Assembly: GCA_049519195.1 (NCBI GenBank) | Contig: JBEKRA010000001.1 | Span: 1-28,083, forward strand | DNA: 28,083 bases | From: Verrucomicrobiota bacterium | GTDB lineage: Bacteria; Verrucomicrobiota; Verrucomicrobiia; Limisphaerales; UBA11358 | Reading direction: 5' to 3' | Shown: positions 1-27,603 of the stretch, in pieces | Layout: each line of letters opens with the position of its first letter | How positions within the stretch are numbered: position 1 is the stretch's first letter | Translations under genes and position numbers: made by a program | The notes under the pieces: model-generated | Seen by the model: the letters and a program-made list of their open reading frames with translations, nothing else | What the model was told of the DNA's origin: nothing | The model's database searches: none

Positions 1-810
1 CTTCGCCTCGGCCGCAAGTTTGCGATAAAAATCCAGCCCGTCCGCTCCGCCGTCGAGCGCGGCGAGCGGATCGAAATCGCGGACCTCCGGTTGGAGCGAG
101 GTGATTTCGGCGGACGGGATGTAAGGCGGGTTGCTGATGATCAAATCAAATTGGTGGGGCGAGACTCCCGGCGAGCCGCCTTGAACATTATCTTTTGGCT
201 CGCGAGGACGTTCGCCCCACCGCTCGGTCAGGACGGCGAAGCTGTTGCTTTCCAGAAATTCAATCCGCTCCGCGACCCTGTTTGCCGCCGCGTTTTGTTT
301 TGCCAACCCGAGCGCTTCGGCGGAAACGTCCAGCGCGATAATCTTGGCGTCCGGACACTTTACTGCCAGCGCGATGGCGATGCAGCCGGTGCCGGTGCCG
401 AAATCCAAAGCCCGGAGGGACGAGCTCTGTGAGTCCCCAACATTTTGAGTTGGGACTTGTGTAACTCGTCCCTCCGAAAGGCGGTTGAGAAACTGCCAGC
501 CCGCTTCCGCGAGCAATTCCGTTTCCGGCCGTGGCACAAGCGCGTGACGGTTCACTGCGATTTCATAACCGCAGAAAGAAGTCGATCCAACGATGTGCTG
601 GAGAGGTTCGCGCCGGCCGCGCCGTTTGACGAGTTCGCGCAGCGTGTCGGTTTCCGCCGCCGAGAGCACGCGCTCGAAGTTCAGATACAACTTCATGCGC
701 GGCAGCTTGAGCAGATGCGCGAGGAGCAATTCGGTTTGCAGCCGCGGCGACTCGACATTTTTTTTGCCGAGAAATTCCGCGCTTTTCTGAATCGCTTCGA
801 GGACGGTCAT
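1..810 (-). CDS. prmC: Release factor glutamine methyltransferase PrmC/HemK, 3' end runs off the window
   Basis: Hand translation of the minus strand from ATG 810: MTVLEAIQKSAEFLGKKNVESPRLQTELLLAHLL...RRGRREPLQHIVG...LVPRPETELL...ALDFGTGTGCIAIALA...FDLIISNPPYI...EVRDFDPLAALDGGADGLDFYR. SAM motif I and NPPY present. Absent from the ORF track because there is no stop in the window. Confidence 0.95.
   Translation of the reverse strand, partial: MTVLEAIQKSAEFLGKKNVESPRLQTELLLAHLLKLPRMKLYLNFERVLSAAETDTLRELVKRRGRREPLQHIVGSTSFCGYEIAVNRHALVPRPETELLAEAGWQFLNRLSEGRVTQVPTQNVGDSQSSSLRALDFGTGTGCIAIALAVKCPDAKIIALDVSAEALGLAKQNAAANRVAERIEFLESNSFAVLTERWGERPREPKDNVQGGSPGVSPHQFDLIISNPPYIPSAEITSLQPEVRDFDPLAALDGGADGLDFYRKLAAEAK
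153..221. repeat. 69-bp palindromic REP-like element (GGTGGGGCGAG family) in frame inside prmC
   Basis: GGTGGGGCGAGACTCCCGGCGAGCC ... GGCTCGCGAGGACGTTCGCCCCACC. Near-identical arms at 27236-27316. Removing it restores FAVLTEQFDLIISNPPY. Confidence 0.9.
413..476. repeat. Palindromic REP-like element inside prmC
   Basis: Perfect 12-bp terminal inverted repeat CGGAGGGACGAG / CTCGTCCCTCCG with inner GAGTCCC/GGGACT. Encodes the extra peptide around SEGRVTQVPTQNVGDSQSSSLR just before motif I. Confidence 0.8.
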
Positions 811-1679
811 GGAAAATTATTCCCTTCCACGCCTTTGAGATAGGCGAAAATCAATTCCGGCAGGTCCTTGCTGTAACCGCCTTCGAGCAGGCTGAAGAAT
901 GGAACATTTAGCGCGCTCAATTCCCTGCCGAGCCAGTGAAAATCCTCCGCCAGCAGAGCGCCATAGGCCAGCGGGTCGCGCGCGTAGGCGTCGAACCCGG
1001 CGGACACGGCGACGAGGTCGGGCCGGAATTTTTTCAAATCGCCGAGCGCGCAGGCGAGCGCGTCGCGATACGTCCCGCGCGGCGCGCCCGGCGCGACGGG
1101 ATAATTAAAGCAGTTTTTGCCAAAGTTCGCCGCGCCCGTGCCGGGATAAAACGGATACAGGTGGATTGAGAAATACGCGCAGCCTGGCCGATCCAGCAAA
1201 ATGGCCTCCGTGCCGTTGCCGTGATGCACGTCGAAATCATAAACCGCGACACGCTTCGAGCCAGTCGCAAGTGCTTCGAGCACGGCGATGGCGATGTTGT
1301 TCAGGTAGCAAAAGCCCATCGCCCGGTCGCGCGTGGCGTGATGGCCGGGCGGGCGCATGAGGCTGAAAACATTTTCACCGGCGCGCGCGGCTTTCAGCGC
1401 GTCGAGCGCGGCGGCGACGGACGCGCGCGCAAAGCCGGCGATGCCTTCGCAAAATGGAGTGTCTTCATCAAAGTCTTCGGGAATTTGCAGGCGCTCCAGC
1501 AGTTCCGGCGAATGGGCGCGGAGAATTTGCGCGTCTTCCACCCCGCCCGGCGCGGCCCAGGTAATGGGCAATTCCGTCTGGCTTTTCAGAAATTCAACGG
1601 CGGTGGTGATTCGCTCCGGCCGTTCGGGATGGCCATCGCGCGAATAGCCGGTGCAGCGTTCGTCGGTGATGATTTTCAT
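807..1679 (-). CDS. Histone deacetylase family (Zn-dependent deacetylase / amidohydrolase)
   Basis: Motifs GHPERPER, RPPGHHA, GFCYLNN, DFDVHHGNGT, SAGFDAY..DPL and LEGGY. The stop overlaps the prmC start (ATGA). Confidence 0.95.
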   Translation of the reverse strand: MKIITDERCTGYSRDGHPERPERITTAVEFLKSQTELPITWAAPGGVEDAQILRAHSPELLERLQIPEDFDEDTPFCEGIAGFARASVAAALDALKAARAGENVFSLMRPPGHHATRDRAMGFCYLNNIAIAVLEALATGSKRVAVYDFDVHHGNGTEAILLDRPGCAYFSIHLYPFYPGTGAANFGKNCFNYPVAPGAPRGTYRDALACALGDLKKFRPDLVAVSAGFDAYARDPLAYGALLAEDFHWLGRELSALNVPFFSLLEGGYSKDLPELIFAYLKGVEGNNFP

Positions 1680-1723
1680 TGCGACATGGCCATCGTTAGC
1701 AAAAACTTCGGCAAGAATACATT

Positions 1724-2770
1724 ATGAAAATGAAATTATTCATCCTCGCGGGCGCGCTCGGCGTATTCGCTTTCAGCGCAGGCGCATGGGATTATGAAGG
1801 CCATCACGCCATCAACGAGCTGGCGCTGGCTTCGCTGCCGAAGGATTTTGGCGGGTTCGATCTGACGCCCGTGCTGAAGGGGCGCGTTGAATTTTTGGCG
1901 GGCGAGCCGGACCGCTGGCGGAACGTGGGCGATCTGCCGTTGAAAAACGTCAACGGCCCGGACCATTACATTGACTTGGAGGGCTTGAAACTTTTCGGCC
2001 TGACGCCCGAGACGCTGCCGCTGATGCGCTACGATTTCGCCGCGGACATCGCAAAGGCGCGCGCGGCGCATCCCGAAAAGTTTCCGCCGATTGACCAGGA
2101 CAAGGACGCCGACCACACCCGCGAGCTGGACGGATTTTTACCCTGGGCCATCACGGAAAATTACGAGAAGTTGAAATCCGGTTTCAGTTCGCTGAAGGCG
2201 TTCCGGCAATACGGTGGCACGCCGGAGGAAATCGCCAACGCGCAGGCGGACTGCATTTATGTGATGGGCGTGATGGGGCATTATGTCGGCGACGGCGCGC
2301 AGCCGTTGCACACGACGGTGCATTTCAACGGCTGGGTCGGCGACAATCCGAAACATTACACGGCCGGACCGGTTACCGGCGTGGAGAGAATGTTCATTCA
2401 CGCGTGGATTGACGGCGGCTATTTCCGGGCGACCGGCGGAATAAAAGTGGAGGCACTCATCGGAAAAATCCAGCCCGCCGCGCGCATCGCCAACGCGGAT
2501 CAGCCGGACGGAATGCTCAAGGCGGCTGTGAATTATCTCGTCGAGCAAAATAAACTGGTCGAGCCGCTTTACGAAATGGAAAAGAACGGGCAGCTCACCG
2601 GCGAGGCCGGCAAAGGCATGGACGGCGTGGCATTTCTCGACGGGCAGCTTGTGAAGGCCGGGCAGATGCTCGGCAACATCTGGCTGACCGCCTGGCTCGA
2701 AGCGCCGGAGGACACTTACTTGGAGCGGCAGCTCCAGCAGCGCGCCGGCGCAGACGCCCAAACAAAATGA
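1724..2770 (+). CDS. Secreted S1/P1 nuclease / Zn-dependent phospholipase C fold protein
   Basis: Signal peptide ending AGA, then WDYEGHH (mature Trp1/His6), GEPDRWR, HYID, GHYVGDGAQPLH and HAWID. These match the tri-zinc ligand pattern. Confidence 0.8.
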   Translation: MKMKLFILAGALGVFAFSAGAWDYEGHHAINELALASLPKDFGGFDLTPVLKGRVEFLAGEPDRWRNVGDLPLKNVNGPDHYIDLEGLKLFGLTPETLPLMRYDFAADIAKARAAHPEKFPPIDQDKDADHTRELDGFLPWAITENYEKLKSGFSSLKAFRQYGGTPEEIANAQADCIYVMGVMGHYVGDGAQPLHTTVHFNGWVGDNPKHYTAGPVTGVERMFIHAWIDGGYFRATGGIKVEALIGKIQPAARIANADQPDGMLKAAVNYLVEQNKLVEPLYEMEKNGQLTGEAGKGMDGVAFLDGQLVKAGQMLGNIWLTAWLEAPEDTYLERQLQQRAGADAQTK

Positions 2771-2834
2771 GCGGCGCCACGGTCGCCGGATTTTCTGGAT
2801 TGACCGGCGTGTTCAACCCGTTTGAAATCCGCGC

Positions 2835-3587
2835 ATGAAAGCGCTGTGCCGGCATCCGCTCCGCGTCACCGGAAGATTCTTCTGGTTTGTCGGCGTCGTG
2901 CTCGCCGCCGTTTTCGATTTTCTTTTTCGCTGCGCGTTCCGCCCGGAAAATTCAGCGCCCGCCGCCCGCGCGCTGTGGCTGCAACGCCATGCGCGGCGCG
3001 CGCTGAAAATTTTCAAGCTGGAAACGCGCGTCAGCAGCCAGGTTCCCGCGCGCGGCCTGCTCGTTTCCAACCATCTGGGTTACCTCGACGTTTTTGTGCT
3101 CGCATCGCTCACGCCCGTGGTGTTTGTGTCCAAGCGCGAGATCAAATCCTGGCCGGTCGTAGGCTGGCTCGCGCAAATGGGCGGCACGTTGTTCGTGGAC
3201 CGCGAACGCCGCCTGCAAGTCGTCCGGATGAACAATCAAATTCAGGCCGCGCTGAATCGGGGCGCGCTCGTGATTTTGTTTCCGGAAGGAGCCAGTTCCA
3301 ACGGCCAGGGCGTTTTGCCTTTCAAGTCCGCGCTGCTCGAACCGGCGGCGCAACCCGCGCACCCGCTCTCGGTCGGCGCGATTCAATACGCCATCGAAGA
3401 CGGCGACGTGGCCGACGAGGTGTGTTACTGGGGCGACCACACATTTTTTCCGCATTTGCTCAACCTGCTGGGCAAGCGCGCCGTCCGCGCCACCGTCCGC
3501 TTTGCGCCCGTTCAACAGACCGGCGCGGACCGCAAGCAACTGGCGCGGCAATTGCGCGGTGAAATTTTGAAACTGAAGAACGGTTGA
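2835..3587 (+). CDS. Lysophospholipid acyltransferase (PlsC/OlsA-like)
   Basis: SNHLGYLD (HX4D), FVSKREI, GTLFVDR and FPEG motifs. Confidence 0.9.
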   Translation: MKALCRHPLRVTGRFFWFVGVVLAAVFDFLFRCAFRPENSAPAARALWLQRHARRALKIFKLETRVSSQVPARGLLVSNHLGYLDVFVLASLTPVVFVSKREIKSWPVVGWLAQMGGTLFVDRERRLQVVRMNNQIQAALNRGALVILFPEGASSNGQGVLPFKSALLEPAAQPAHPLSVGAIQYAIEDGDVADEVCYWGDHTFFPHLLNLLGKRAVRATVRFAPVQQTGADRKQLARQLRGEILKLKNG

Positions 3588-3665
3588 TGACATCGGGGGA
3601 AATTTTATTGCGGTTCAATTTAACATTGGCACTCCCCGGTTCACGCAGCAAAGCCGTCTGCCGCA

Positions 3666-3764
3666 AAGCGCCAGAGGGCTGGCGCAGTCCACGACGCTTC
3701 GCGCCGTTCGTGAATTTCAGGCAAACGCTTTGCGTTTTGGACTGCGGCGGCCCTCCGCCGCTTT
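3666..3764. repeat. 99-bp REP-like element (AAGCGCCAGAG...TTTTGGACTGCGGCGGCCCTCCGCCGCTTT family)
   Basis: Reverse-complement copy of the same length at 25905-26003; diverged copy at about 16966-17065. Confidence 0.85.
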
Positions 3765-3793
3765 TCCCTGCGGCACTTCAAACCGTGCCAATG

Positions 3794-4402
3794 CTAACCC
3801 AAATTGCCTTGTTTTTCCCGGCGCAACTTCTTTGCGGATTTTGACGACGGCGGCGGCGGCGCGGCCAGCATCTTCCGCAACGCCTCTTCAAAGCCAAGTC
3901 CGTTCGCGGTGATTTTTCTTTTGCCGCGGGCACGGGTTTCATCCGCGGCGACAACGCCGTTCAATTTGTTTTCATCACCCGTTTTGTCGTCGAGGGCAAG
4001 GCGGATGCGGCGCGCCATGAACCCGGCGGACTTGCAGGTGATTTTCAGCAGACGGTGAAGCCGGCGGGCGGACACGGCTTTTTTGCCGGAACAAACGCAG
4101 GACAAGGCCGTGAGCCACGAGCCGATTTTGATGTGGCTTCCCTCGAAAACCGTTTTGACCGTCACGGTGAATTGGCTGCGGCAGGCCGCGCAACAATAAA
4201 CGCCCTTGCGCGCCGGACACCGGCTGCCGGCTTTGGGCGTGAGTTTATAAACCTCGTCAAACTGGCAATGCGGGCATTGGACGCCCTTGGGCCAGCGCAA
4301 TGACTCCAGAAATGCGCGGGCCTTGTCCTCGTCGGCGTATTCCCGCGCCAGCTTCATCAGGTTCAAATCATCCGCATCGAACTCGTTTTGCATCGTTACC
4401 AT
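3794..4402 (-). mobile_element. IS1595-family transposase remnant (Zn ribbon + HTH, catalytic core deleted)
   Basis: DEDKARAFLESLRWPKGVQCPHC...YCCAACRSQFTVTVKTVFEGSHI...SGKKAVSARRLHR...GVVAADET. Homology stops at the first Asp of the DDE triad, followed by an unrelated basic tail. The real start is probably ATG 4402 or 4393. Confidence 0.85.
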
Positions 4403-4406
4403 GCGA

Positions 4407-4435
4407 CCCATAGGCGAACTTTTTGCATTTGTCAA
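4407..4435 (-). promoter_or_regulatory. Putative sigma70 promoter of the transposase remnant
   Basis: TTGACA (4435-4430), 17 nt, TATGGG (4412-4407). The ORF-track TTG start at 4435 is this -35 hexamer. Confidence 0.5.
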
Positions 4436-4673
4436 GTATCATATTTGCGACTTGCCGCCTTGGCGCTGGCCATTTGCCGGCGAAGAATGATTGAAGAGCA
4501 CGCGCGCCTGGAAGGACGCGGAAGGCTTGAAAAACGGCCTTTTTCAACGATTTAAGCAAAGCCAATTGGATTGGCTGGGGCTGATATTGAGCCATTTCAC
4601 GGGTCTGCCCGGCTGATTCCCATGCCCGGAGCTTTTCCGGCCCAAGGCTCCTGAAAAAAAATCAAAAAACTTC

Positions 4674-4702
4674 TTTACATTTGTTCCCGCATGACGCATT
4701 AT
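4674..4702 (+). promoter_or_regulatory. Putative sigma70 promoter of the PEP-CTERM gene
   Basis: TTTACA-N17-CATTAT preceded by an A-rich, UP-element-like tract (AAAAAAAATCAAAAAAC). Confidence 0.4.
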
Positions 4703-4764
4703 TTTCGCGTTGGGGAAAATTTGAAACACAAACACAGCGCAAAAAATAACAAATGGGAAATCTT

Positions 4765-5421
4765 ATGAAGACAAACGTGATAAAAAAATTGGCACTGGCT
4801 GCGGTGGTCAGTTCGTTCGTGGCTCTTAATGCAAGTGCGGTTGTGAACTACGCTTTTGATCCTAATAACACTGATGCCTTGGGCGGTGCTTATGTTCCAG
4901 CAGTGCCAACCACATTCGCGCAAGTATTCACTGTGGCCAATAATGATACTATAAATATTTCAGCCCTTGGCGTGTATGCATATGAATTGATCAACAACGT
5001 AACTGTTTCCATTTACGATTCCACCATCGCGGGTGTGACAAGTGGTGGTGCGCTCGATACGGCAACTTTTGGCAGCACCTCACAATTGAATGGTTACTAT
5101 TTCAAAAGCACTTCCTTAAATCTTGGCTCTGGAATTTATGCGATTGTGACGTCCTACACAGGCGGCGTTAATACCAGTGGCTATTATACGGGTAGTTCCG
5201 GCGACATCACTGCTTGGGCTGGTGGCGATGGGGTAACTCTTGGGAATCTGTATAAGGTAGGCAATATTCACCCACAAGATGATACGGCCTACGGTTCCGG
5301 TAACATGAAATTTTCGTTAGTGCCCGTTCCCGAAACCGGCGGATTCGCCGTGGCGGCCGTCGCGCTGTTGGGTCTGGTCTATGTTGGCCGCAGCTATTCG
5401 CGCAAGCTGAAAGTCGCGTAA
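4765..5421 (+). CDS. PEP-CTERM-type sorted surface protein (variant VPETGG motif)
   Basis: Signal peptide MKTNVIKKLALAAVVSSFVALNASA, Thr/Ser/Gly/Asn-rich body, and C-terminal PVPETGG + hydrophobic helix + basic tail (RSYSRKLK). Alternative start 4753. Confidence 0.85.
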   Translation: MKTNVIKKLALAAVVSSFVALNASAVVNYAFDPNNTDALGGAYVPAVPTTFAQVFTVANNDTINISALGVYAYELINNVTVSIYDSTIAGVTSGGALDTATFGSTSQLNGYYFKSTSLNLGSGIYAIVTSYTGGVNTSGYYTGSSGDITAWAGGDGVTLGNLYKVGNIHPQDDTAYGSGNMKFSLVPVPETGGFAVAAVALLGLVYVGRSYSRKLKVA

Positions 5422-5442
5422 GACGTTTTGGATTCCCATTTG

Positions 5443-5472
5443 AGGGCGGCTTGATTTCAAGCCGCCCTTTTT
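5443..5472 (+). terminator. Intrinsic terminator after the PEP-CTERM gene
   Basis: 12-bp perfect stem AGGGCGGCTTGA / TCAAGCCGCCCT followed by a T tract. Confidence 0.85.
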
Positions 5473-5475
5473 GTT

Positions 5476-5739
5476 GGCAGTGTCCTGATTTGAATGGAGC
5501 GCGGGTGTCCCAGGGTGCGGGACAAAATTCTTCGTAGCGCGGGCGTCCTCACCATGATCCTCCCGGGAGCGCCGGCGTCCCGCCGGCCAGTAGTCGGAAC
5601 CCGAAAACCGGAACTTGCCGGCGAGACGTCGGCGCTCCCGGGAATGGCACCCCGGTTCAAGGGTTCAAATGCCTTGCCGTTGCCATCCGCCGCGAGTGGG
5701 ACAGGCGTATCTCCAATAATTGCGAATCAGGACACCACC
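5476..5739. mobile_element. MITE-like element with nested REP palindromes and a 9-bp target-site duplication
   Basis: TIR GGCAGTGTCCTGATTTG / CGAATCAGGACACCACC. CTTTTTGTT is duplicated at 5467-5475 and 5740-5748. Inner 27-bp inverted repeat at 5561-5587 / 5617-5643. Confidence 0.85.
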
Positions 5740-5860
5740 CTTTTTGTTTGTGCTTTGCCCGGGCCAGGCTTAATTTTTCCGCATGGCGGAGAACTTGGAC
5801 AAACACTTTCAGAACCTTGGACACGTGAAGCTGTCCAAAAGCAATTTCATGTGCGTGTTG

Positions 5861-5990
5861 CCAAAATCATTTTGGAGACGGCGGAGCGCGGCTGTCCCAG
5901 CCGCAGCACGTTCGACAAACCAACAGCCCGTGGAATTTCACGCGCTCATTCCGCAATCCGGGCTGCCGCGGGTGGGACACCCGCGCTCCG
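5861..5990. repeat. REP-like element (CGGAGCGCGGCTGTCCC family)
   Basis: Palindromic arms at 5882 and 5990. Highly similar direct copy at 17172-17293; related arms at about 19419-19494. Confidence 0.85.
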
Positions 5991-6050
5991 TTCCATTGCC
6001 ATCATCATTCACCCATCGCGCGCCACGGCCGCAACCCACGAGGACACACG

Positions 6051-14322: not shown

Positions 14323-14520
14323 GGGACGATGCAGTTGAGAAGCCGAACCGCCGGGCGAGTAGCTGCGACGCCCCCGTCGCAGAGCGTGCCGGCGACGCCT
14401 CGTCGCCGGAGCCGCCACGCAAACCAAATGGTGTGGCGGATTTCTCGCGCGACGAGGGCGTCGCGCGCACCTTCTGCGACGGGGCGTCGCAGATACGCGT
14501 TCCGGCAACTGAATCGTTCC
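14323..14520. mobile_element. MITE-like nested palindrome between the kinase and the response regulator
   Basis: TIR GGGACGATGCAGTTG / CAACTGAATCGTTCC, with inner inverted pairs CTGCGACGCCCCCGTCGCAGA / TCTGCGACGGGGCGTCGCAG and GCGACGCCTCGTCGC / GCGACGAGGGCGTCGC. Confidence 0.75.
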
Positions 14521-16480: not shown

Positions 16481-16665
16481 GGAACCATGCAGTAGGACAG
16501 GCGTCGCGCCTGTCTCTAACTTTGAATGATCGCCTTTAGGCGTTGTTTTTCAACCGGGGTTTGCGATCACCGAATGGTGCGGGGGAGTTTTTTGATGGAG
16601 ACAGGCGCGACGCCTGTCCTACGGTGCGACCGCAACCGCCCGTCCGGTTTCAATTGCATGGTTCC
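16481..16665. mobile_element. MITE-like element with an inner perfect 25-bp inverted repeat
   Basis: Outer GGAACCATGCA / TGCATGGTTCC, similar to the TIR of 14323-14520. Inner GTAGGACAGGCGTCGCGCCTGTCTC (16492-16516) / GAGACAGGCGCGACGCCTGTCCTAC (16598-16622). Confidence 0.75.
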
Positions 16666-16685
16666 GGTTTAGATTGACATACCGG

Positions 16686-17293
16686 CGCTGGCAAGGGCGG
16701 GCAGTCCTCTGCCTGCCGCTCTCCTGTCAGCGAGCACCACGACGGCGCGCACGGAGAGTGCAATGCAGAGAACACAAAGCAAGACGGGCTGATTCTGAAT
16801 GGAGAATGGCGTCAGATTTTTTCCGCTGAAATCATTCCTCCGCTGCTCTCTTTGCGTTCTTTTGTGGCAATTCAATTTCGGAGTTCGGGTTAAACCCGAA
16901 TTCCGAAGCTGGCGGGCAAACATGCAGGGTTTTGGGAGCGGATCGGGTGAGGAATGGGCGGGAAAGAGCGGCGATAAATCGCACGCAGTCCAGATGCTTC
17001 GCGATGGCCGGGCCGCACCAAACTTCGCGCCAGCTTTTGGACTGCGTGTGCTTGAGCACCGCTTTGCGCCGCACGGCAACGATGCCCCGCTTTGAAACAG
17101 CCGCAATTCCCATTTCGGAGTTCGGGTTAAATGAGACCAAGGCGTCGTTCGCAGGCTTGCTTTGCCTTGGGCCAAATCATTTTAGAGACGGTGGCGGCTG
17201 TCCCAGCCGCAGCACGTTCGACAACCCCAAAACCCGTGGAATTTCGCGCGCTCATTCCGCAACCCGGGCTGCTGCGGGTTGGACAGCCGCGCT
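16686..17293. repeat. Mosaic of REP-like elements (BIME-like)
   Basis: Contains a GGGCGGGCAGTCCTCTGCCTGCCG arm, the palindrome TTCGGAGTTCGGGTTAAACCCGAATTCCGAA (with its left half repeated near 17114), a copy of the 3666 family at about 16966-17065, and a copy of the 5861 family at 17172-17293. Confidence 0.75.
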
Positions 17294-19384: not shown

Positions 19385-19514
19385 GGTAGTGTCCGAATTT
19401 GAATTTCAAATTTGCGGGCGGAGCGCGAGTTGTCCCAACTCGCAGCATGTCCGCACTGTTCAGCCGCTGCGGATTGGGGACAATCCGCGCTCCGAGCCAA
19501 ATCAGGACACTGCC
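19385..19514. mobile_element. 130-bp MITE-like element with an 8-bp target-site duplication
   Basis: TIR GGTAGTGTCCGAATTTG / CAAATCAGGACACTGCC. CCGGTTTC is duplicated at 19377-19384 and 19515-19522. Carries a CGGAGCGCG...CGCGCTCCG palindrome. Same TIR family as 5476-5739. Confidence 0.88.
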
Positions 19515-19539: not shown

Positions 19540-20196
19540 TTAAAGCCACAGTTTCAAATTTTCACGAAGAATCTGCCGGGCGCGATAAAGTCTTGATTCC
19601 ACGGCCTTCGGCGTTGTTTCCAAAATGGTTGCGGCCTCGACCAGGCTGTGCTCCTCCCATTCGCACAGCACAATTGCCTCGCGCAAATCGTCCGGCAATT
19701 TGCCGACGGCCGCGCGGACGGCAGCGGCGCGCTCGGCATCGAGCGCCTGTTCGTTCGGTGCGGGAATGTCGGATGGAAGCGTGCTGCCCAGCGTCTGTTC
19801 CGTTTCTGCATTTTCCGTTTCGAGCGAAATGTTCGGATGCCGGCTGCGCCAGCGGAAGTGATTGCGCGCCAGATTTGCGGCGATGGTGTAAAGCCAGGTG
19901 GAAAATCTTTCGCTGGTCCGGAAACTGCCGCTCGACTTGAAAACCCGGACGAAAGTTTCCTGCGCCAGATCATTTGCATCGTCCTCGTTGCCAACCATGC
20001 GGCAGAGGAAATGGAACACCGGCGTGGCGTGGCGTTGCATCAAATCGTTGAGCGCCGTGTCCCGGCCGGCAATCAGGCGTTCCATGTCCGCCCGGTCGCG
20101 GGCGTCGTCGAACTGCCGCGCCAACTCGTCGCGCCGGAGTGAAACGGAGGTGGAAGCCTCCGGCGAAGGCCGGGCATCAGGGCTGGTGATGCTCAT
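19540..20196 (-). CDS. ECF RNA polymerase sigma-70 factor
   Basis: DANDLAQETFVRVF (region 2.2), FSTWLYTIAANLARNHFR, and region 4 VGKLPDDLREAIVL...EAATILETTPKAVESRLYRARQILR. Start uncertain (ATG 20196 or TTG 20220). Confidence 0.95.
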   Translation of the reverse strand: MSITSPDARPSPEASTSVSLRRDELARQFDDARDRADMERLIAGRDTALNDLMQRHATPVFHFLCRMVGNEDDANDLAQETFVRVFKSSGSFRTSERFSTWLYTIAANLARNHFRWRSRHPNISLETENAETEQTLGSTLPSDIPAPNEQALDAERAAAVRAAVGKLPDDLREAIVLCEWEEHSLVEAATILETTPKAVESRLYRARQILRENLKLWL

Positions 20197-20722
20197 GGCC
20201 GGCGGACATGGACTGCTCAATCTCCTCGTGGAAACCGAGCGTGAGTTTTTTCATTTCGGCAAGATAACGGCGGCCCTGCTCCGGCGGCATGGCCTGGCTG
20301 ACGATGATGAAGTGCTGCAACATTTGCGCCTGGCATTGCGCGCGCAGCTCGCCGAGTTCGGTCAGTTTCTTTTGCGCCCCGGCGGTCACATTGGTTCCGT
20401 TGCCGAGCGCGGCTTGAACTTCCGTCTTTTTGGCCGCGATCAACGCGCACATTTTGGCGCATTGCGGCATGTAGCCTTCGTGAAGCTGCCGGACGCGCGC
20501 CATCTCGGCATCGCTCAAATGAAATGCATCGCGCAGCCAGCTCAAATTGTCCGCCGAGCGCGTCATCAGGCACGCACGCTGGCTGACAAAGCAGGCGCCG
20601 GCAAAAACCGCTGCTGCCAGCGTCACGGCACCCAGCAAAATGACAAGCGACCGGCCTTCGCCGGGCCGTAGCTTGCCGGAAAACGGCTGGAATTTTCCGA
20701 AGGGATTGAAATTGTGACGCAT
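20177..20722 (-). CDS. Periplasmic heavy-metal sensor, CnrX/NccX/ZraP/Spy-like helical protein, Cys/Met/His-rich
   Basis: N-terminal TM, LSWLRDAFHLSDAE, LHEGYMPQCAKMC, RAQCQAQMLQHF, MPPEQGRRY and a C-terminal HEHH. The ancestral start was probably ATG 20761, now interrupted by an insertion. Confidence 0.75.
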   Translation of the reverse strand: MRHNFNPFGKFQPFSGKLRPGEGRSLVILLGAVTLAAAVFAGACFVSQRACLMTRSADNLSWLRDAFHLSDAEMARVRQLHEGYMPQCAKMCALIAAKKTEVQAALGNGTNVTAGAQKKLTELGELRAQCQAQMLQHFIIVSQAMPPEQGRRYLAEMKKLTLGFHEEIEQSMSAGHEHHQP

Positions 20723-20752: not shown

Positions 20753-20761
20753 CCGGTTCAT

Positions 20762-21076: not shown

Positions 21077-21172
21077 CGGTTCATGGGCGGCGGTGTTATT
21101 GTCCGCCGCCCATATTCTATCGTTTTTGTTGCGCCGGGCAATCCGGCAGACTTCATCTGGTTGTATATCTGT

Positions 21173-21201
21173 CTTACCCCGGCCAGCCGGAAATCCCTCA
21201 A
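21173..21201 (-). promoter_or_regulatory. Putative ECF-sigma promoter of the regulatory operon
   Basis: TTGAGGGATTTC-N12-GTAAG on the minus strand. Identical boxes and spacing at 23550-23578. Confidence 0.8.
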
Positions 21202-21248
21202 AAATCCACAAGCCCCGGCAGATGCGGGAAATATTTCCCGCTGCACGC

Positions 21249-21276
21249 TTGCCTTCACTTCGCGGCAAACTAAACT
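21249..21276 (+). promoter_or_regulatory. Putative sigma70 promoter of the helicase (near-leaderless)
   Basis: TTGCCT-N16-TAAACT ending 8 nt before ATG 21285. Confidence 0.45.
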
Positions 21277-21284
21277 TCGCGCCC

Positions 21285-23441
21285 ATGTTGGATTTGAAAA
21301 CGCTCAACCCGCAGCAGCGCCAGGCGGCCGAAACCGTCAAAGGTCCGGTGCTCATTCTTGCCGGCGCGGGCACCGGCAAGACGCGCGTCATCACGTTCCG
21401 CATCGCGCACATGGTCGCGCGCGGGATTTCGCCGACGCACATCCTCGGCGTCACGTTCACCAACAAGGCCGCGCGCGAAATGCAGGAGCGGGTGAAAAAA
21501 CTTGTGCCGCGCCCGCGCGCCAATTCTGACCCTCAACTCTCAACCCTCAACTCTCAACCAACAATCTGCACGTTTCACTCGCTCTGCGTCCGCATTTTGC
21601 GGCAGCACATCGAAAAGCTCGGCTACAAGCGCAATTTCGTCATCTACGACGAATCGGAGCAGCTTGGCGCGGTCAAAAAGATTTTGAGCAGCATTTCCGC
21701 GAAGGGCGAGAAGGTTGACCCCGGCGCGGTGCTGGCGGTGTTGAGCAAATTCAAAAATCAAGTGGCACAGGCGTCTTGCCTGTCAGGTTCTGAAAAGAAA
21801 CACACAGGCGGGACGCCTGTGCCACTATTTGGTGATCCGAGCGTCCGCGCGCTGGCGCAGCACATTGCCAAGCGTTACGAATCCGCATTGCACGCCTGCA
21901 ACGCCGTGGATTTTGATGATTTGATCCTGCTCACGCTGCGGCTGTTCCGCGAGCAGCCTGACACGCTCGCAGCCTGCCGCGCGAAATTTCGTTACGTCAT
22001 GGTGGACGAGTATCAGGACACGAACGCCGCGCAATTTGAGCTGGTCCACGCGCTCACGAAGGAGCACCGGAATCTCTGCGTGGTCGGCGACGACGACCAG
22101 AGCATCTACGGCTGGCGCGGCGCGGAGATCGCCAACCTGCTCGACATGGAAAAGCATTTCCCCGAGGTCAAAATCATCAAGCTGGAGCAGAATTACCGCA
22201 GCACCAGGACGATTCTCAACGCCGCCAACGCCATCATCAAGCACAACGTCCGGCGGCGCGGCAAATCGCTGTGGTCAAGCAAGGGCGCGGGCGGGAAAAT
22301 CCAGTTGCACACGTTTAACAACGACGAAACCGAGGCGCGCGAAATCGTGGCGCAGATTGAATTCAAGCGGCTGGCGCACCGGACGCCTTGGCGGGATTGC
22401 GCGATCCTCTTCCGCACGAACCAGCAGTCGCGTCCGCTTGAAACCGCGCTACGCACCGCCGGCGTGCGCTATCATTTGATCGGCGGCCAGAGCTTCTTTG
22501 ATCGGCGCGAGGTGAAGGATTTTCTCGCCTACCTGAAAATGTTCCTGAACCCGCACGATGACATCAGCCTTTTGCGCATCGCCAATGTGCCGGCGCGCGG
22601 CTTGAGCGACGTGACGATGGAACGGCTGCTCGGCGCGAGCCACGACCGGAAATGTTCCGTCTTCACCGCGATGAAAAATCCGCTGGTGACGACGACGTTC
22701 CAGTCCAACACGCGCAAAAGCATCGAGGCGTTTGTGGAATTCGTCGAGCGGACACGCGGGCAACTCGGTAGTGGCACAGGCATCTTGCCTGTGAGTTCCG
22801 AAAGCAAGACAAGCCCAGAAATACACAGGCAAGATGCCTGTGCCACTACTTTCATGCTCGCGCGATGGGCCGACCATTTCCTGAACGAGACCGGTTATTT
22901 CGCCGAACTTCGCCGTCAGGAAAAGAATCCGGAGAACAGTGAGGGCCGCGTCCGCAATCTGAAGGAATTCATGGCGACAATGGACCGCCCGGCGGGCGGC
23001 GGCTCATCACCCGCCGAGCGGCTGGGAAATTTTATCGAAGAAATCACGCTCGACACCGAGCGCGAGGAGGAGGAGGAAAACACCGGCGACGCCGTAACGC
23101 TTATCACGATGCACTCGTGCAAGGGGCTGGAATTCCCGCACGTCTTCATCGTCGGGCTGGAGGACGGACTGTTGCCGCACTCGCGGTCCAAGGCCGAAGG
23201 CACGCTTGACGAGGAGCGGCGGCTATTTTACGTGGCGGTGACGCGAGCGATGCAGACGCTCACCATCAGCCATTGCGGCGGGCGGAAGAAATACGGCCAG
23301 GTGCTGCCATGCCATCCGTCGCCGTTCCTGAAGGAACTGCCGGAGGAACTTGTCGAACATTCCGACTCGAAATCCAAGACACCCGTCGCGCCGGAATCGG
23401 GGAAAGGTCTGTTCGCGGCGATGCGCCAGGCCGTCACCTGA
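21285..23441 (+). CDS. UvrD/PcrA/Rep-family SF1A DNA helicase
   Basis: LILAGAGTGKTRVIT, VTFTNKAAREM, TFHSLCVRILR, DEYQD, VGDDDQSIYGWRGA, LEQNYRS, HSCKGLEF and EERRLFYVAVTRA. Start ATG 21285; the ORF-track upstream extension overlaps the divergent promoter. Confidence 0.97.
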   Translation: MLDLKTLNPQQRQAAETVKGPVLILAGAGTGKTRVITFRIAHMVARGISPTHILGVTFTNKAAREMQERVKKLVPRPRANSDPQLSTLNSQPTICTFHSLCVRILRQHIEKLGYKRNFVIYDESEQLGAVKKILSSISAKGEKVDPGAVLAVLSKFKNQVAQASCLSGSEKKHTGGTPVPLFGDPSVRALAQHIAKRYESALHACNAVDFDDLILLTLRLFREQPDTLAACRAKFRYVMVDEYQDTNAAQFELVHALTKEHRNLCVVGDDDQSIYGWRGAEIANLLDMEKHFPEVKIIKLEQNYRSTRTILNAANAIIKHNVRRRGKSLWSSKGAGGKIQLHTFNNDETEAREIVAQIEFKRLAHRTPWRDCAILFRTNQQSRPLETALRTAGVRYHLIGGQSFFDRREVKDFLAYLKMFLNPHDDISLLRIANVPARGLSDVTMERLLGASHDRKCSVFTAMKNPLVTTTFQSNTRKSIEAFVEFVERTRGQLGSGTGILPVSSESKTSPEIHRQDACATTFMLARWADHFLNETGYFAELRRQEKNPENSEGRVRNLKEFMATMDRPAGGGSSPAERLGNFIEEITLDTEREEEEENTGDAVTLITMHSCKGLEFPHVFIVGLEDGLLPHSRSKAEGTLDEERRLFYVAVTRAMQTLTISHCGGRKKYGQVLPCHPSPFLKELPEELVEHSDSKSKTPVAPESGKGLFAAMRQAVT
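21532..21559 (+). repeat. Heptamer tandem repeat (CTCAACY)x4 inside the helicase
   Basis: CTCAACT CTCAACC CTCAACT CTCAACC, translated as PQLSTLNSQP just before TFHS. Confidence 0.85.
21761..21826. repeat. 66-bp REP-like palindrome in frame inside the helicase
   Basis: Perfect 15-bp TIR AGTGGCACAGGCGTC / GACGCCTGTGCCACT; peptide VAQASCLSGSEKKHTGGTPVPL. Confidence 0.9.
22768..22849. repeat. REP-like palindrome in frame inside the helicase
   Basis: Perfect 26-bp inverted repeat GTAGTGGCACAGGCATCTTGCCTGTG / CACAGGCAAGATGCCTGTGCCACTAC; peptide SGTGILPVSSESKTSPEIHRQDACAT. Confidence 0.9.
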
Positions 23442-23549
23442 AGACGGATTGTTGGGCTGCAAAACTGGCGGTTTTGCCACCCCGACTACTTGCTAATTTC
23501 ATTCAGAAGGCCATCTTTGAGGCGGTTGTGCGGGAAATTCCAAAATTAG

Positions 23550-23578
23550 TTGAGGGATTTCAGCTTTAGTGGTGTAAG
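23550..23578 (+). promoter_or_regulatory. Putative ECF-sigma promoter of the metal-efflux operon
   Basis: TTGAGGGATTTC-AGCTTTAGTGGT-GTAAG, ending 48 nt before ATG 23627. Matches 21173-21201. Confidence 0.8.
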
Positions 23579-23626
23579 CATAGTCAGCGCACCAAAAGCG
23601 GGCGCACAACTAAACAAATCAATATC

Positions 23627-23971
23627 ATGAAATTATTCAATCGCATCAGCCGCCGGGTGGCGACCGGACTGGTTTTGGCCGCGGTGTTCGCCATGGTGCC
23701 GGCAATCATCCACGCCGACGGCACCAATGCCGTCAAAGCCGCCGAATCCAAACCCACGCCGTATCCGCTGCAAACCTGCGTCGTGTCCGGCGATAAACTC
23801 GGCGGGATGGGCGACCCGATCGTGTTCGTCTATACCAACAAGGGCATCAATCAGGAAATCAAATTTTGTTGTCCGATGTGCAAGTCGAAATTTCTTGCCG
23901 ACCCGGACAAATACATGAAGATCGTCCACGATGCCGAGGCCAAGGTGAAAGCCAAGGACGCTAAAAATTGA
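23627..23971 (+). CDS. Exported YHS/TRASH-like metal-binding protein
   Basis: Signal peptide, then TCVVSGDKL...IKFCCPMCKSKFLADPDKY. Confidence 0.85.
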   Translation: MKLFNRISRRVATGLVLAAVFAMVPAIIHADGTNAVKAAESKPTPYPLQTCVVSGDKLGGMGDPIVFVYTNKGINQEIKFCCPMCKSKFLADPDKYMKIVHDAEAKVKAKDAKN

Positions 23972-24027
23972 CGGATTCACGTCAAAAAAGCCTGGCGGTT
24001 TCCCGGCGGGTGCATGACATTAGAAAC

Positions 24028-24375
24028 GTGAAAACGACGTGGGCCATCATTTGCAGCCTGGTGCTGGCGGGAACACCGTTCCTGCTCGCGCAAACGCCGT
24101 TGCCGGTGTGCCGCGCGAAACAGCCGGTTCCCGCGTGCTGCCAGCATGGCTGCAAAATGCCGTGCTGCTCGCCAAAACCGGCGTCGGATTCGAAGCCGGC
24201 CCCGGCGGTTCCGGCGCAGACTGGCGGCCAGAACCAAGTTTCATTTCTTGCACCCAACGCTCTGGTCTGGGTTTTGCCTGACGCCCCGGTTTCCAAACTT
24301 TCGTCCACCACTCAAATCTCGCTTGTGACGAAGGGCAGTCCGCTTTACGCGAGGAACTGCGCCCGGCTGATCTGA
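24028..24375 (+). CDS. Small exported Cys-rich protein upstream of the RND genes (possible leader/regulatory peptide)
   Basis: GTG 24028 (or TTG 23968 overlapping the YHS stop), hydrophobic N-terminus, CCQHGCKMPCC cluster, Pro-rich linker and C-terminal PLYARNCARLI. Confidence 0.65.
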   Translation: MKTTWAIICSLVLAGTPFLLAQTPLPVCRAKQPVPACCQHGCKMPCCSPKPASDSKPAPAVPAQTGGQNQVSFLAPNALVWVLPDAPVSKLSSTTQISLVTKGSPLYARNCARLI

Positions 24376-24486
24376 TTTTTCTCCTCCCACACCCGCAGTG
24401 TGCCCATGAACGGCGCGCTGCGTCCCAGTCCGTTTTGTATCCGTGAATTTGTTGTGTCCGTGAAATGCGTTAATAATCGAAAATTT

Positions 24487-25833
24487 ATGAAGTCAGTTGC
24501 CATCTTATGTGTGTTTGCCGTCGGCGGGCTGGTGCTCGCCGGTTGCCGGGGCATCCAGACATCGGGCGAAAAGCAGGCGCGCCAGGATTTTGGCGCTGTC
24601 GCCGGTCAATACCGGCCCGCCAACCGCCCGGCTTTGCCGGAGTTGACACCGGATTCGAGCTTGAGCAATTTTGTCGCGTCCGCGCTGCTCAACCAGCCGC
24701 AGGTTGCGACGGCATATTACGATTGGGCGGCGTCCATCGAAGGCATAACGGTCGCCCGTTCGCTGCCGGACCCTCAATTGACCTTCCAATCGGACATCGC
24801 GGACATCGTGATGAACTTGATGCCCGGTTTTCTCCAGGAATTTCCCGGCCCCGGCAAACTCAAGGCGCGCGCCAGAGTCGCCGGCGCGGAAAGCCGGGGC
24901 AAATACTTCGCGTTTGAAAGCGCAGTGCTGCAAACCGCGTTCAACCTGAAAAACGCCTATTACAAGCTTGGCCTGTTGGACGAACAGCTTCACCTCAAAC
25001 GCGCGACGCTTGCGTTGCTGGAAAATCAGGAGCGCGTTCTCCGCGCCCAAGGCATGGCGGGCATGGCATCGCTGCCGGATGTGCTGCGCGTCCAAAGCGA
25101 ACTCGACCGCATCCGCAATGAAATCGCCAATCTCGAAGACTCACGGGGTTCGTTGCTGGAAAATTTCAAGGCCGCGCTGGGTCTGACGCCCGAACAACCA
25201 GATCCGCCAACACCAGCGCATTTTGAAACGAGCGGCGAAAACCCCGACGCTGACGAACTGTTTCGTTTTGCGTTCGCGCACAATCCGCAGCTTGCGGCGA
25301 TGGCTGCCGACGTGCGCGCCGCCGAAGCCGGGATTGCGATGGCTTACAAGGAGCGCGTGCCGGATTTCAGCCTCGGCTTGATGGCCGATGTCAAGGCCTC
25401 GCCCACGATGTTCCGTCCGCTGGCGGGCATGACGCTGCCCATCTGGCGCGACAAGCTCGCGGCGGAAATCGCACAGGCACAGGCAAACGAGCTGGCGGCA
25501 AAATCGCGGCTGAAGGCGGCGCAAATTGACCTTGCCGTGAGTTTTGCCGAGAAGTCGTTTGCCTGCCGTGAAACCAGCCGCAATCTAACACTGATTGAGA
25601 AAGAATTGATTCCCAAGGCGCGTCAATCCGTTGAAACCGTCCGCGCCGGTTATCGCACCGGCACGATGGATTTTTCCGCCATGACCGACGCAGATCGAAC
25701 GGTGTTGGATTTGCAACTGGAAGCCGTTCTAGCCCGGACCGACCGCGAGCTGGCGCTGGCGGAATTATCACTCATGGTTGCCGGTGTGCCGCCGGCAAAC
25801 GCGCCGCTTTTGTCGAATACCCCTCAACCTTGA
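24487..25833 (+). CDS. TolC-family outer-membrane factor lipoprotein (CusC-like position)
   Basis: Lipobox VLAGC after the start MKSVAILC (24487), OEP-type helical repeats (ARSLPDP.L, ERVPDFSLG). Directly upstream of the cusB/cusA-like genes. Confidence 0.9.
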   Translation: MKSVAILCVFAVGGLVLAGCRGIQTSGEKQARQDFGAVAGQYRPANRPALPELTPDSSLSNFVASALLNQPQVATAYYDWAASIEGITVARSLPDPQLTFQSDIADIVMNLMPGFLQEFPGPGKLKARARVAGAESRGKYFAFESAVLQTAFNLKNAYYKLGLLDEQLHLKRATLALLENQERVLRAQGMAGMASLPDVLRVQSELDRIRNEIANLEDSRGSLLENFKAALGLTPEQPDPPTPAHFETSGENPDADELFRFAFAHNPQLAAMAADVRAAEAGIAMAYKERVPDFSLGLMADVKASPTMFRPLAGMTLPIWRDKLAAEIAQAQANELAAKSRLKAAQIDLAVSFAEKSFACRETSRNLTLIEKELIPKARQSVETVRAGYRTGTMDFSAMTDADRTVLDLQLEAVLARTDRELALAELSLMVAGVPPANAPLLSNTPQP

Positions 25834-25839
25834 AATTTT

Positions 25840-27603
25840 ATGAAATCGAAATTGAAAATGATTTTAACCTGGATATTTCTCCGCCGAAGCATGGCGCGGA
25901 TCGAAAAGCGGCGGAGGGCCGCCGCAGTCCAAAACGCTGGCGCGTTTGACGATGCGTCCAGCGTGCGCGAAGCGTCCTGGAGTGCGCCAGTCCTCTGGCG
26001 CTTGAGGATTTTGAAAATGCGCCTTTTGATCGGAATGCTGCTCATCACGGCGATGGGTTTGTGCGTGTTCGCCGCCGACAATTCCATCCAGCCGGAAGCA
26101 ACCAACGCCACCGCCGCTTCTTCCGGGAAAACGCTTTACACCTGCGGGATGCACCCGTGGATCATTCAGGATCATCCCGGCAACTGCCCGATTTGCGGCA
26201 TGAAACTTGAACCGGTTCACAAAACCGCGCGTGCCGGGGAGGCGTCATCGTCGGCCATCATCGTTGACCCGGCGACGATTCAGTTGATGAACATCCAGAC
26301 GACGGAAGTCGCGCGCGGCCCGCTGCGCCGGACCATCCGCACCGTCGGCACAATTGATTACAACGAAACCGCGTTGGCGGACGTGACGACGAAGTTCAAG
26401 GGCTGGATTGAAAAGCTGGACGTGGACGCCACCGGCAAGTTGGTGCATCGCGGCGAGCCGTTGTTTGAAATTTACTCGCCGGAACTTTACAGCGCCGAGG
26501 CCGAATATCTGGCCATGTTGAATTCGACGAACGGTTCAGGCGGGACGACGCTGCGCGAGGCGGCTCGGGACAAGTTGAAATTTTTTGACATCTCGGACGC
26601 GCAAATCGCCAAGTTGGAAAAATCGCCCGCGCCAAAGAAGACACTGGAAATCCTCGCGCCGGCGGATGGATTCGTGATTGAGAAAAATGTCGTGCAGGGC
26701 CAGATGGTGGAGGCCGGCATGAAGCTTTACCGGCTGGCCGACCTCGGCATCGTCTGGGTTTTCGCGCAGGTTTACGAGCAGGATTTGCCCTACGTCCAGC
26801 TCGGCCAGGAGGCGACCGTCAAATTGTCGTCGCTGCCGGACCGCGAATTTCGCGGGCGCGTCACCTATGTTTATCCGAACGTGGATGAAAAGACGCGCAC
26901 GGCGAAGGTGCGGCTGGAATTTGAGAACCCCGGTTATTTCCTGAAGCCCGGCATGTTCGTCTCGGCGCAAATCACGGCGGAATTGGAAGCCTCCGCGTTG
27001 CTGGTGCCGGATTCGGCGGTGCTGCGCAGCGGCGAGAGAAACACGGTGTTCGTCGCGCTGCCCGGTGGCAAATTTGACCCGTGCATGGTCGCGCTCGGCC
27101 CGGAATCGGAACATGACATGGTTGAAGTCATCAGCGGTTTGCAGGAAGGCGAGCGGGTCGTCGCCTCCGGACAATTCATGCTGGATTCAGAAAGCCAGTT
27201 GCGCGAGGCAATCCAGAAAATGAATGGCAATTTGGGGTGGGGCGAGACTACTGGCGAGCCGAATAGCACAACCAATTCTCCGACCATAGACGGCTCGCGA
27301 GGACGCTCGCCCCACCAGGCTGAAGCGGCTGAAGGCGTGGTCTATGTCTGCCCGATGCCGGAGCACGCGAGCGTTCATGAAGACAAGCCGGGCAAATGTC
27401 CCATTTGCGCCATGACATTAATTCCGGTGATGGCGCCGCCGGGAGCAGCCACGAATTCAGCGACAACAAATACCATTTCAGCCTCCAACACGCAGTCGGC
27501 AGCCAAGCAGCTTTACACCTGCCCGATGCATCCCGATGTGATTTCTGACAAGCCCGGCAAATGCCCGGAGTGCGGGATGAATCTGGTGCCAGTTGAAAAA
27601 TGA
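25840..27603 (+). CDS. cusB: CusB-like RND periplasmic adaptor with three heavy-metal-binding (YxCxMH/P...CPxCxM) domains
   Basis: Core motifs KFKGWIEKL, LFEIYSPELYSAEAEY, LADLGIVWV, YPNVDEKTRTAKVR, LKPGMFV and SGQFMLDSESQLREA. One N-terminal and two C-terminal metal-binding domains. Confidence 0.92.
   Translation: MKSKLKMILTWIFLRRSMARIEKRRRAAAVQNAGAFDDASSVREASWSAPVLWRLRILKMRLLIGMLLITAMGLCVFAADNSIQPEATNATAASSGKTLYTCGMHPWIIQDHPGNCPICGMKLEPVHKTARAGEASSSAIIVDPATIQLMNIQTTEVARGPLRRTIRTVGTIDYNETALADVTTKFKGWIEKLDVDATGKLVHRGEPLFEIYSPELYSAEAEYLAMLNSTNGSGGTTLREAARDKLKFFDISDAQIAKLEKSPAPKKTLEILAPADGFVIEKNVVQGQMVEAGMKLYRLADLGIVWVFAQVYEQDLPYVQLGQEATVKLSSLPDREFRGRVTYVYPNVDEKTRTAKVRLEFENPGYFLKPGMFVSAQITAELEASALLVPDSAVLRSGERNTVFVALPGGKFDPCMVALGPESEHDMVEVISGLQEGERVVASGQFMLDSESQLREAIQKMNGNLGWGETTGEPNSTTNSPTIDGSRGRSPHQAEAAEGVVYVCPMPEHASVHEDKPGKCPICAMTLIPVMAPPGAATNSATTNTISASNTQSAAKQLYTCPMHPDVISDKPGKCPECGMNLVPVEK
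25905..26003. repeat. 99-bp REP-like element in frame in the cusB N-terminal region
   Basis: Reverse complement of 3666-3764. Peptide around KRRRAAAVQNAGAFDDASSVREASWSAPVLWR. Confidence 0.85.
27236..27316. repeat. 81-bp REP-like palindrome in frame inside cusB
   Basis: GGTGGGGCGAGACTACTGGCGAGCC ... GGCTCGCGAGGACGCTCGCCCCACC, same family as 153-221. Peptide WGETTGEP...GSRGRSPHQ. Confidence 0.9.

Follow-up and report, generated by a model that had tools for sequence, protein, structure and literature searches.

The 28,083-nt stretch of DNA analysed here, called the window, is contig C1 of G000, a metagenome-assembled genome (MAG) of a Verrucomicrobiota bacterium (NCBI assembly GCA_049519195.1, contig JBEKRA010000001.1), and it carries three conserved genes, prmC, a PcrA/UvrD-type helicase gene and cusB, that contain palindromic repeats. 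The MAG is a short-read assembly of 2.78 Mb in 528 contigs, 73% complete. The public relatives of the helicase are named Verrucomicrobiota, Limisphaerales or Pedosphaera and come from peat, bog and soil, and the window sequence is present in peat metagenomes. The repeats are doublets of repetitive extragenic palindromic (REP) units, and the genome also encodes transposases of the REP-associated tyrosine transposase (RAYT) type. The genes and their repeats are given below, with z for the z-score of folding as single-stranded DNA (ssDNA); G-numbers designate the relatives compared, which are non-independent samples, and C-numbers the contigs of G000.

1..810, minus strand: prmC, release-factor glutamine methyltransferase, truncated at its 3' end where the window stops (Pfam PrmC_N 3.9e-21, MTS 3.2e-14)
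153..221, minus strand: family A REP doublet of 69 nt (GGTGGGGCGAG...CTCGCCCCACC), read as RWGERPREPKDNVQGGSPGVSPH immediately ahead of the FDLIISNPPY strand; z -5.45
413..476, minus strand: family B REP doublet (CGGAGGGACGAG...CTCGTCCCTCCG), located in the linker ahead of the ALDFGTGTGC S-adenosylmethionine motif and read as SEGRVTQVPTQNVGDSQSSSLR; z -6.74
21285..23441, plus strand: PcrA/UvrD-type superfamily 1 helicase (Pfam UvrD-helicase 1.4e-86, UvrD_C 9.7e-76; PDB 1PJR 8.9e-139)
21761..21826, plus strand: hel_a, family C (GTAG/GTGG-tagged) REP doublet, read as QVAQASCLSGSEKKHTGGTPVPL; z -10.0
22768..22849, plus strand: hel_b, family C REP doublet carrying the full GTAG tag, located in the 2B-domain region and read as GSGTGILPVSSESKTSPEIHRQDACATT; z -10.4
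25840..27603, plus strand: cusB-type membrane-fusion protein with heavy-metal-binding repeats (Pfam HlyD_D23 9.9e-81, HMBD 4.1e-39)
25860..26018, plus strand: insert of 159 nt (53 codons) behind cusB codon 7, placed by ortholog N-termini and containing a family D REP doublet (25905-26003)
27236..27316, plus strand: family A REP doublet of 81 nt in the variable linker that joins the HlyD body to the C-terminal metal-binding repeats, read as GWGETTGEPNSTTNSPTIDGSRGRSPHQ; z -5.71

In-frame REP doublets in prmC, the helicase gene and cusB

A first-pass annotation of the window had described six coding insertions. All six segments are indeed strong imperfect palindromes through which the host open reading frames (ORFs) remain open, as borne out by their folding and by the size of their families. 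The arms are 80% complementary over 25 nt at 153-221, 76% over 25 nt at 413-476, 84% over 31 nt at 21761-21826 and 85% over 26 nt at 27236-27316; the segment at 22768-22849 has a perfect 26-nt core, and that at 25905-26003 consists of two REP hairpins in inverted order. As ssDNA the segments fold with z-scores of -5.1 to -10.4, and an equal fold was obtained in none of 200 shuffles. Exact arm 11-mers occur genome-wide 56 times for family A, 29 times for family B and 68 and 80 times for family C, compared with 0-4 times in second-order Markov shuffles.

The REP unit is a short (20-40 nt) imperfect palindrome, and in families C, D, B and F the single arms already form hairpins, for example ACAGGC-GTCTT-GCCTGT or GCGGCAG-AGGG-CTGCCGC. 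Because each arm is a small hairpin of its own, the elements are REP doublets (REPINs), and in six of six segments two inverted units around a spacer of 4-81 nt, variable in sequence, yield one long hairpin. The six segments are members of genome-wide REP doublet families, and several distinct families are involved, as the first-pass annotation had supposed. The outer ends of family C follow the consensus GTAG-TGGCACAGGC (GTAGTGGCACAGGC) or CGTAGGACAGGCG and carry the classic GTAG tag, which goes with this family; family A begins with GGTGGGG, families B, E and F with GGAG, and family D has another end.

Relative to orthologs the net gain is a multiple of three, namely 16 aa at three sites, and hel_b adds 22 codons relative to a strain variant. 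The lengths proposed earlier for 413-476 (64 nt) and 22768-22849 (82 nt) correspond to the extents of the palindromes and not to those of the inserts. Codon log-odds are negative for the inserts (between -0.10 and -0.21 for four of the six), as opposed to +0.19 to +0.22 for the hosts. Genome-wide, Ser, Pro, Cys, Arg, Gln and Gly are over-represented in the insert peptides, whose content of Tyr, Ile, Phe and Trp is low. The family A copies of prmC (minus strand) and cusB (plus strand) are read in the same frame; the similarity of their peptides, which had been singled out, simply follows from palindromy combined with the use of that frame.

The prmC gene (codon log-odds +0.19, with -0.10 for the 153-221 segment) has an intact NPPY motif, and excision of 153-221 does restore VLTEQFDLIISNPPY as predicted. 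Among the 19 orthologs compared, the loop before ALDFGTGTGC (site 1) has 7 aa in eight, vs 23 aa here with family B, which is present at this site in G000, G022 and G004. The loop before FDLIISNPPY (site 2) has 4 aa in six of the 19. It harbours family A in four genomes (G000, G001, G017 and G003), family B in G004, G023 and G010, a B-like family in G009, family C in G016 and a fifth family (GVRR..MSPHSK) in G022 and G012, and G006 has what appears to be a half-eroded family A copy. The presence of five different families in one prmC loop inside one genus goes beyond the findings of Di Nocera et al. (2013). In a prmC tree built without the insert columns, well-supported sisters differ at site 2, G004 having family B and G016 family C (support 98/91), and some sister pairs combine a filled with an empty state, though these are less well supported (89/62 and 92/79). 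In the model of PrmC from G017, a genome with the same family A insert, residues 206-223 form a coil with a predicted local distance difference test score (pLDDT) below 50 directly ahead of the NPPY strand.

As for the helicase, its start is likely at 21285, downstream of that of the longest ORF, according to both the gene caller and the orthologs. The hel_a insert is unique to G000, without counterpart in 23 of 23 orthologs, and replaces 21 nt of the orthologs by 69 nt, so that 16 codons are gained net. Most of these orthologs have an empty hel_b site, and G010 and G012 carry another hairpin family there. The 103 nt of G000 at hel_b correspond to 37 nt, or 22 codons fewer, in a peat strain of about 90% identity (run X2). 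Together with the sister genomes that differ at the prmC loop, this strain without hel_b bears out the ongoing turnover that had been postulated, at the scale of the genus. In the alignment with PcrA (1PJR), hel_a falls inside a gapped stretch and hel_b inside an unaligned gap between two matched stretches, regions that we take to be domains 1B and 2B, respectively. In the AlphaFold2 model of the helicase (mean pLDDT 71.6), hel_a (residues 165-181) and hel_b (residues 501-521) are helix-flanked coils with pLDDT below 50, so that both helicase inserts, like that of prmC site 2, are modelled as loops. In four peat metagenomes, word depth over the helicase elements (21766-21826 and 22742-22863) is 5-20 times that of their flanks, which implies that these REP sequences must be plentiful in numerous genomes of those communities.

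The cusB gene lies between CusC-like and CusA-like genes. Its linker copy of family A (27236-27316) is present in none of 10 orthologs and thus unique to G000. Between 27330 and 27480, the gene also has about 45 residues fewer than its orthologs, corresponding to one repeated heavy-metal-binding unit, which looks like a deletion between repeats. The situation is different at the N-terminus, where 25905-26003 had been described as a 99-bp insertion. The palindrome is there, but it sits inside the 159-nt insert, whose borders carry a 9-nt repeat, TTGAAAATG. Removal of the 159 nt gives MKSKLKMRLLIGMLL..., matching the ortholog N-termini, which indicates that the element landed in the cusB coding sequence and that the frame was kept. 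The 3' end of the insert is GAGGATTTTGAAAATG, i.e. a ribosome-binding site and an ATG directly ahead of the normal signal peptide, so that the insert is possibly untranslated. The ancestral start is at 25840 and the alternative one at 26016, as judged from ortholog N-termini, and the start that maximises codon log-odds leaves the insert out. Either start yields a workable protein, and the N-terminal element is therefore doubtful as coding sequence; the other five segments, two in prmC, two in the helicase gene and one in the cusB linker, are in frame in intact genes.

Palindromes in a fragmented short-read MAG call for some caution, as they might reflect chimeric assembly at repeats, decaying genes or ancestral sequence lost elsewhere. 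Unitigs do break within hel_b, and a second, foreign prmC fragment (C399:2-451), 72% identical to the prmC of the window and with a family B insert at site 2 as in G023, reveals that the MAG holds some DNA of a second, related strain. Nevertheless, each insert has one conserved gene, in one frame, on its two sides, and at the helicase locus, where reads were checked, error-free unitigs from three peat runs of different studies span hel_a. ORFs, catalytic motifs and codon usage are intact, and distant orthologs lack the segments. The ortholog alignments proposed as a check reveal lineage-specific insertions in variable loops of conserved, intact genes rather than ancestral sequence. An artefactual or degenerative origin is largely refuted, and we consider it highly improbable.

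Distribution of the hairpins in the genome

Hairpins were counted genome-wide at a score of at least 14, with a hairpin finder and a gene caller specific to this analysis. The latter, based on codon log-odds, called 2427 genes (coding density 84.6%) and recovered the expected genes of the window; it replaced a stricter coding test that had overlooked one cusB copy (cusB_b) and both prmC copies. The genome has 588 such hairpins and a shuffled version 15. The comparison of coding with intergenic copies suggested by the first-pass annotation gave the following distribution:

Wholly within genes: 172 of 588 (29%; random expectation 73%)
Overlapping a gene end: 93 (16%; random expectation 16%)
Intergenic: 323 (55%; random expectation 11%)

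The hairpins are thus depleted in genes, as selection predicts. At least one internal hairpin is found in 142 intact genes (about 6% of those called), and 23 genes have two to four, 22 of which have clear Pfam domains. These multi-insert hosts include dnaE, priA, DinG-like and UvrD-type helicases, recG and hrpB; two restriction-modification methylases, an RluD-like fusion, hypF and a copper ATPase; and murG, argS, trpC and ispG. On the coding strand, the arms of family C are read as V-x-Q-A in 45 cases, as S-G-T-G in 38 and in the third frame in two. That frame is avoided because the TAG of the GTAG tag closes it, and an avoidance based on the encoded peptide was accordingly rejected. In the window, four hairpins with a score of 14 or more lie within genes, for 1.74 expected from the genome mean (P=0.10). 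The unusual density attributed to it is a property of the whole genome, and the idea of an exceptional window was discarded.

Loops occupied by several families recur within the genus: prmC sites 1 and 2, the hel_b site and two loops of dnaE. We attribute this recurrence mainly to repeated insertion filtered by selection for permissive loops. Could the in-gene copies instead be kept for a function, as DNA or RNA signals (pausing, mRNA stability, sites for gyrase or nucleoid proteins) or as selected linkers and interaction loops? Roles of REPs in supercoiling, termination and mRNA stability have been reported (PMC3733652), the family A insert of prmC is common to four genomes, and nucleic-acid enzymes are frequent among the multi-insert hosts. 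Yet sister genomes hold other families or none at the same loop, the spacers vary freely, the hosts are functionally unrelated, and the inserts are modelled as low-confidence coil. Retention for a function thus appears improbable.

Further hairpin families with arms made of tandem 7-mers (AACATTC, AAATCGT, GACGAAT) were observed at C228:3943-4038, C420:781-870 and C17:10602-10672. Some of the tandem-7-mer hairpins are also in frame within genes, one being read as HSTFNIQHSTSNIE. Outside the three host genes, the window contains the following elements between genes or at gene ends, for which no strand is given:

3665..3764: family D REP doublet, intergenic; fold z -4.3
5561..5643: family F REP doublet (CCCGGGAGCGCCGGC...), intergenic; fold z -7.9
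5882..5990: family E element (CGGAGCGCGGCTGTCCC...), intergenic; other copies at 17194-17290 and 19419-19494
14372..14484: family H hairpin element, intergenic
16492..16622: family C GTAG REP doublet (GTAGGACAGGCGTCGCGCCTGTC...), intergenic, with perfect 25-nt arms; z -9.4
16967..17063: D-like element, intergenic; near-identical copies on C48 and C360
20650..20757: family G hairpin element overlapping the end of the gene at 20177-20722
27679..27799: hairpin with CGGGCGTCGCGCCCG arms between cusB and cusA, overlapping the cusA start

RAYT transposases and in-frame RAYT cassettes

The search for RAYT/IS200-like transposases flanked by the repeats, also proposed in the first-pass annotation, was positive for families C, D and E. 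The MAG has at least 10 transposase genes of the RAYT type (Y1/HUH), with 10 matches to Y1_Tnp. Four were compared with the NCBIfam model REP_Tyr_transpos (NF047646), two of which scored above the cut-off of 80 bits (86.9 and 89.5) and two just below it (73.8 and 74.8). The sole PDB match was Escherichia coli TnpA-REP (4ER8) with a non-significant E-value of 0.07; the alignment covers the HUH (HVH) and YIxxNPV motifs. The RAYTs on C516 and C60 are flanked by E-type (GGAGCGCG) REPs, and in-frame RAYTs on C176, C54 and C226 by family C. The free-standing RAYT at C393:1770-2831 has a REP doublet in frame within its own coding sequence (peptide GRSDAPRSGARSIASPE).

The RAYT-like gene at C2:930-1765 has family D doublets on both sides, which bears on how that family moves. 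Some families might be miniature inverted-repeat transposable elements or composites moved by a DDE-type cut-and-paste transposase with target duplications, the REP hairpins being mere cargo. The N-terminal insert of cusB, with its 9-nt direct repeat at the borders and a unique stretch of 43 nt next to the D doublet, could be read in this way, and several D doublets (on C91, C142, C153, C373 and C484) lie within a longer conserved element. The RAYT-like gene directly flanked by D doublets argues against cut-and-paste transposition, as does the absence of a duplication at five of the six sites. In addition, the 9-nt repeat may be microhomology with the tail of the element itself, since the GGATTTTGAAcATG tail is also present behind another family D copy (C243:2045-2146). 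We therefore regard a DDE-type mechanism as unlikely, and mobilisation by RAYTs as the better account. On the flanks of the C2 cassette, about 60 nt from the 5' end of the neighbouring gene (peptide DLLKATSRSFYLTLRV) are present in duplicate; the cassette may have moved together with its target, or duplicated it.

Of the ten RAYT matches, three lie in frame within host proteins as domains. The dnaE gene (C176:564-5063) has an ORF of 1500 aa vs about 1200-1260 aa in relatives, with an in-frame REP-RAYT-REP cassette before IRFGLAAIKGVG. Its FAPA-xxx-IRFGL loop is 3 aa long in 20 of 27 relatives, 12-28 aa long in six and 265 aa long in G000. The 265-aa insert is stop-free and made of a REP doublet, a RAYT carrying its own doublet and a further doublet, and this cassette is unique to G000 among 28 genomes. 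In priA (C54:3-2462) and a DinG-like helicase gene (C226:2-2665), an in-frame RAYT domain is bracketed by family C hairpins. Relatives have in-frame RAYTs in priA, alaS (alanyl-tRNA synthetase) and DinG-like genes, with flanking hairpins in some cases only. The PriA-RAYT architecture is present in at least 1157 public proteins, mostly from Verrucomicrobiota, and the best 120 of these all share the RAYT region with an invariant HVH motif. We found no description of a RAYT inside dnaE or priA in the literature searched. The cassettes have no Hint splicing domain, and the insert presumably stays in the mature host protein. A tentative reading of these architectures is that RAYTs of the GTAG family may need no gene of their own and could exist within essential genes as in-frame domains that have their REP doublets on either side.

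Origin, precedents and significance

Altogether, the segments are most probably REPIN-type non-autonomous mobile elements that are copied by RAYTs and survive in frame in permissive loops of intact genes. A REPIN, that is two short REP hairpins inverted around a variable spacer, would be copied in trans by Y1/HUH transposases of the RAYT type acting on ssDNA hairpins, here in a Limisphaerales/Pedosphaera-like peat bacterium that is home to many REP families. Insertion would take place everywhere, and selection would then remove the gene-breaking copies. The in-gene survivors would be those with a length gain that is a multiple of three and a stop-free reading frame (two of three frames for family C), in loops or linkers that tolerate 16-30 extra residues rich in Ser, Pro, Gly, Thr, Gln and Arg and probably disordered. 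Such inserts would be nearly neutral. Selection for permissive loops would entail their repeated occupation by different families, which gives the appearance of hot spots.

Several observations weigh against this interpretation. Five of the six sites (those of prmC and the helicase gene were checked) show neither a target-site duplication nor a target motif, which leaves the insertion chemistry putative. The hel_a element is a replacement of 21 nt of host sequence and not a clean insertion. The 73%-complete MAG yielded no RAYT with family A or B at its flanks, and the inserts are presumed to be translated. Preference for existing hairpins or another target preference could contribute, beside selection, to the recurrence at given loops. 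Lastly, the test of length modulo 3 proposed in the first-pass annotation gave only a marginal shift, with 45/18/15 between arm anchors in genes vs 28/18/25 outside (chi-square P ~0.05); the signal is marginal because the element ends are ragged, and ORF continuity and ortholog alignment are better evidence.

For comparisons of density, we assumed a genome of about 6 Mb for Opitutus terrae, a member of the same phylum. Rickettsia palindromic elements, the precedent invoked in the first-pass annotation, do resemble the present repeats as palindromes inserted in frame in functional genes and adding peptide (Ogata et al. 2000, cited after PMC3733652), but the closest precedents include the intragenic GTAG REPs of O. 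terrae (PMC3733652). Rickettsia belongs to an unrelated lineage, its elements are presumably unrelated in sequence as well, and membership in them is not claimed; they also have no known dedicated transposase, unlike the REPs of G000 with their RAYTs. Di Nocera, De Gregorio and Rocco (2013; BMC Genomics 14:522, PMC3733652) split REPs into GTAG and CGTC super-families, list the intragenic GTAG REPs of O. terrae in 70 rows of a supplementary table, and report a GTGG variant of the tag, many replication and repair hosts including UvrD/REP helicases, and REP-flanked RAYT genes. The O. terrae elements share with ours the GTAG/GTGG tag and variable-spacer dimers coding for 20-30 residues, in hosts such as UvrD/REP-type and other helicases and DnaE-type polymerases, and the peptide GTGVPPV of O. 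terrae GTAG-19 corresponds to the family C module. The in-gene density is about five times higher here, with at least 172 in-gene hairpins in 2.8 Mb vs those 70 rows in a genome of about 6 Mb. G000 also has more families, including some without the GTAG tag, several families recur at one loop within the genus, and a transposase lies in frame in host genes, of which the passages of PMC3733652 found by a targeted term search make no mention.

Like the REPIN-RAYT systems described elsewhere (Bertels and Rainey 2011, PMC3116915; Nunvar et al. 2010, PMC2817692), the elements of G000 are REP doublets that form long hairpins and persist across related genomes, with several families per genome, of which C, D and E have a RAYT flanked by their REPs here. 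The classical REPINs are almost wholly extragenic, whereas 29% of the hairpins are in genes here, and classical RAYTs are free-standing and single-copy, unlike the three of ten matches that are in-frame host domains. For the RAYT cassettes only, inteins with homing endonucleases provide an analogy, as selfish enzymes in frame in replication genes (dnaE, helicases) whose imprecise loss would be lethal; the cassettes differ in having no splicing domain and presumably remain in the mature protein. In-frame REPs have thus been known in Verrucomicrobia since 2013, and the phenomenon is unusually dense in this genome. New relative to the parts of PMC3733652 used here are the reuse of the same loops by multiple families in one genus and the whole RAYT cassettes in frame in dnaE, priA and a DinG-like helicase gene.

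Peptides derived from such repeats can create spurious similarity between unrelated proteins and shift predicted starts, as in cusB, which calls for caution in annotation. If active, the in-frame RAYT cassettes would represent a new way of housing and expressing a transposase. An active embedded domain would mean that replication-fork proteins include an ssDNA transposase, right at the place where its hairpin substrates arise. A RAYT residing within host proteins could then explain both the heavy in-gene REPIN load and the long persistence of the system, as an intein-like refuge without splicing. More generally, this genome shows the extent to which a free-living bacterium tolerates selfish hairpin DNA in its essential genes, and it offers a natural map of insertion-tolerant loops along with a steady supply of new disordered protein segments.

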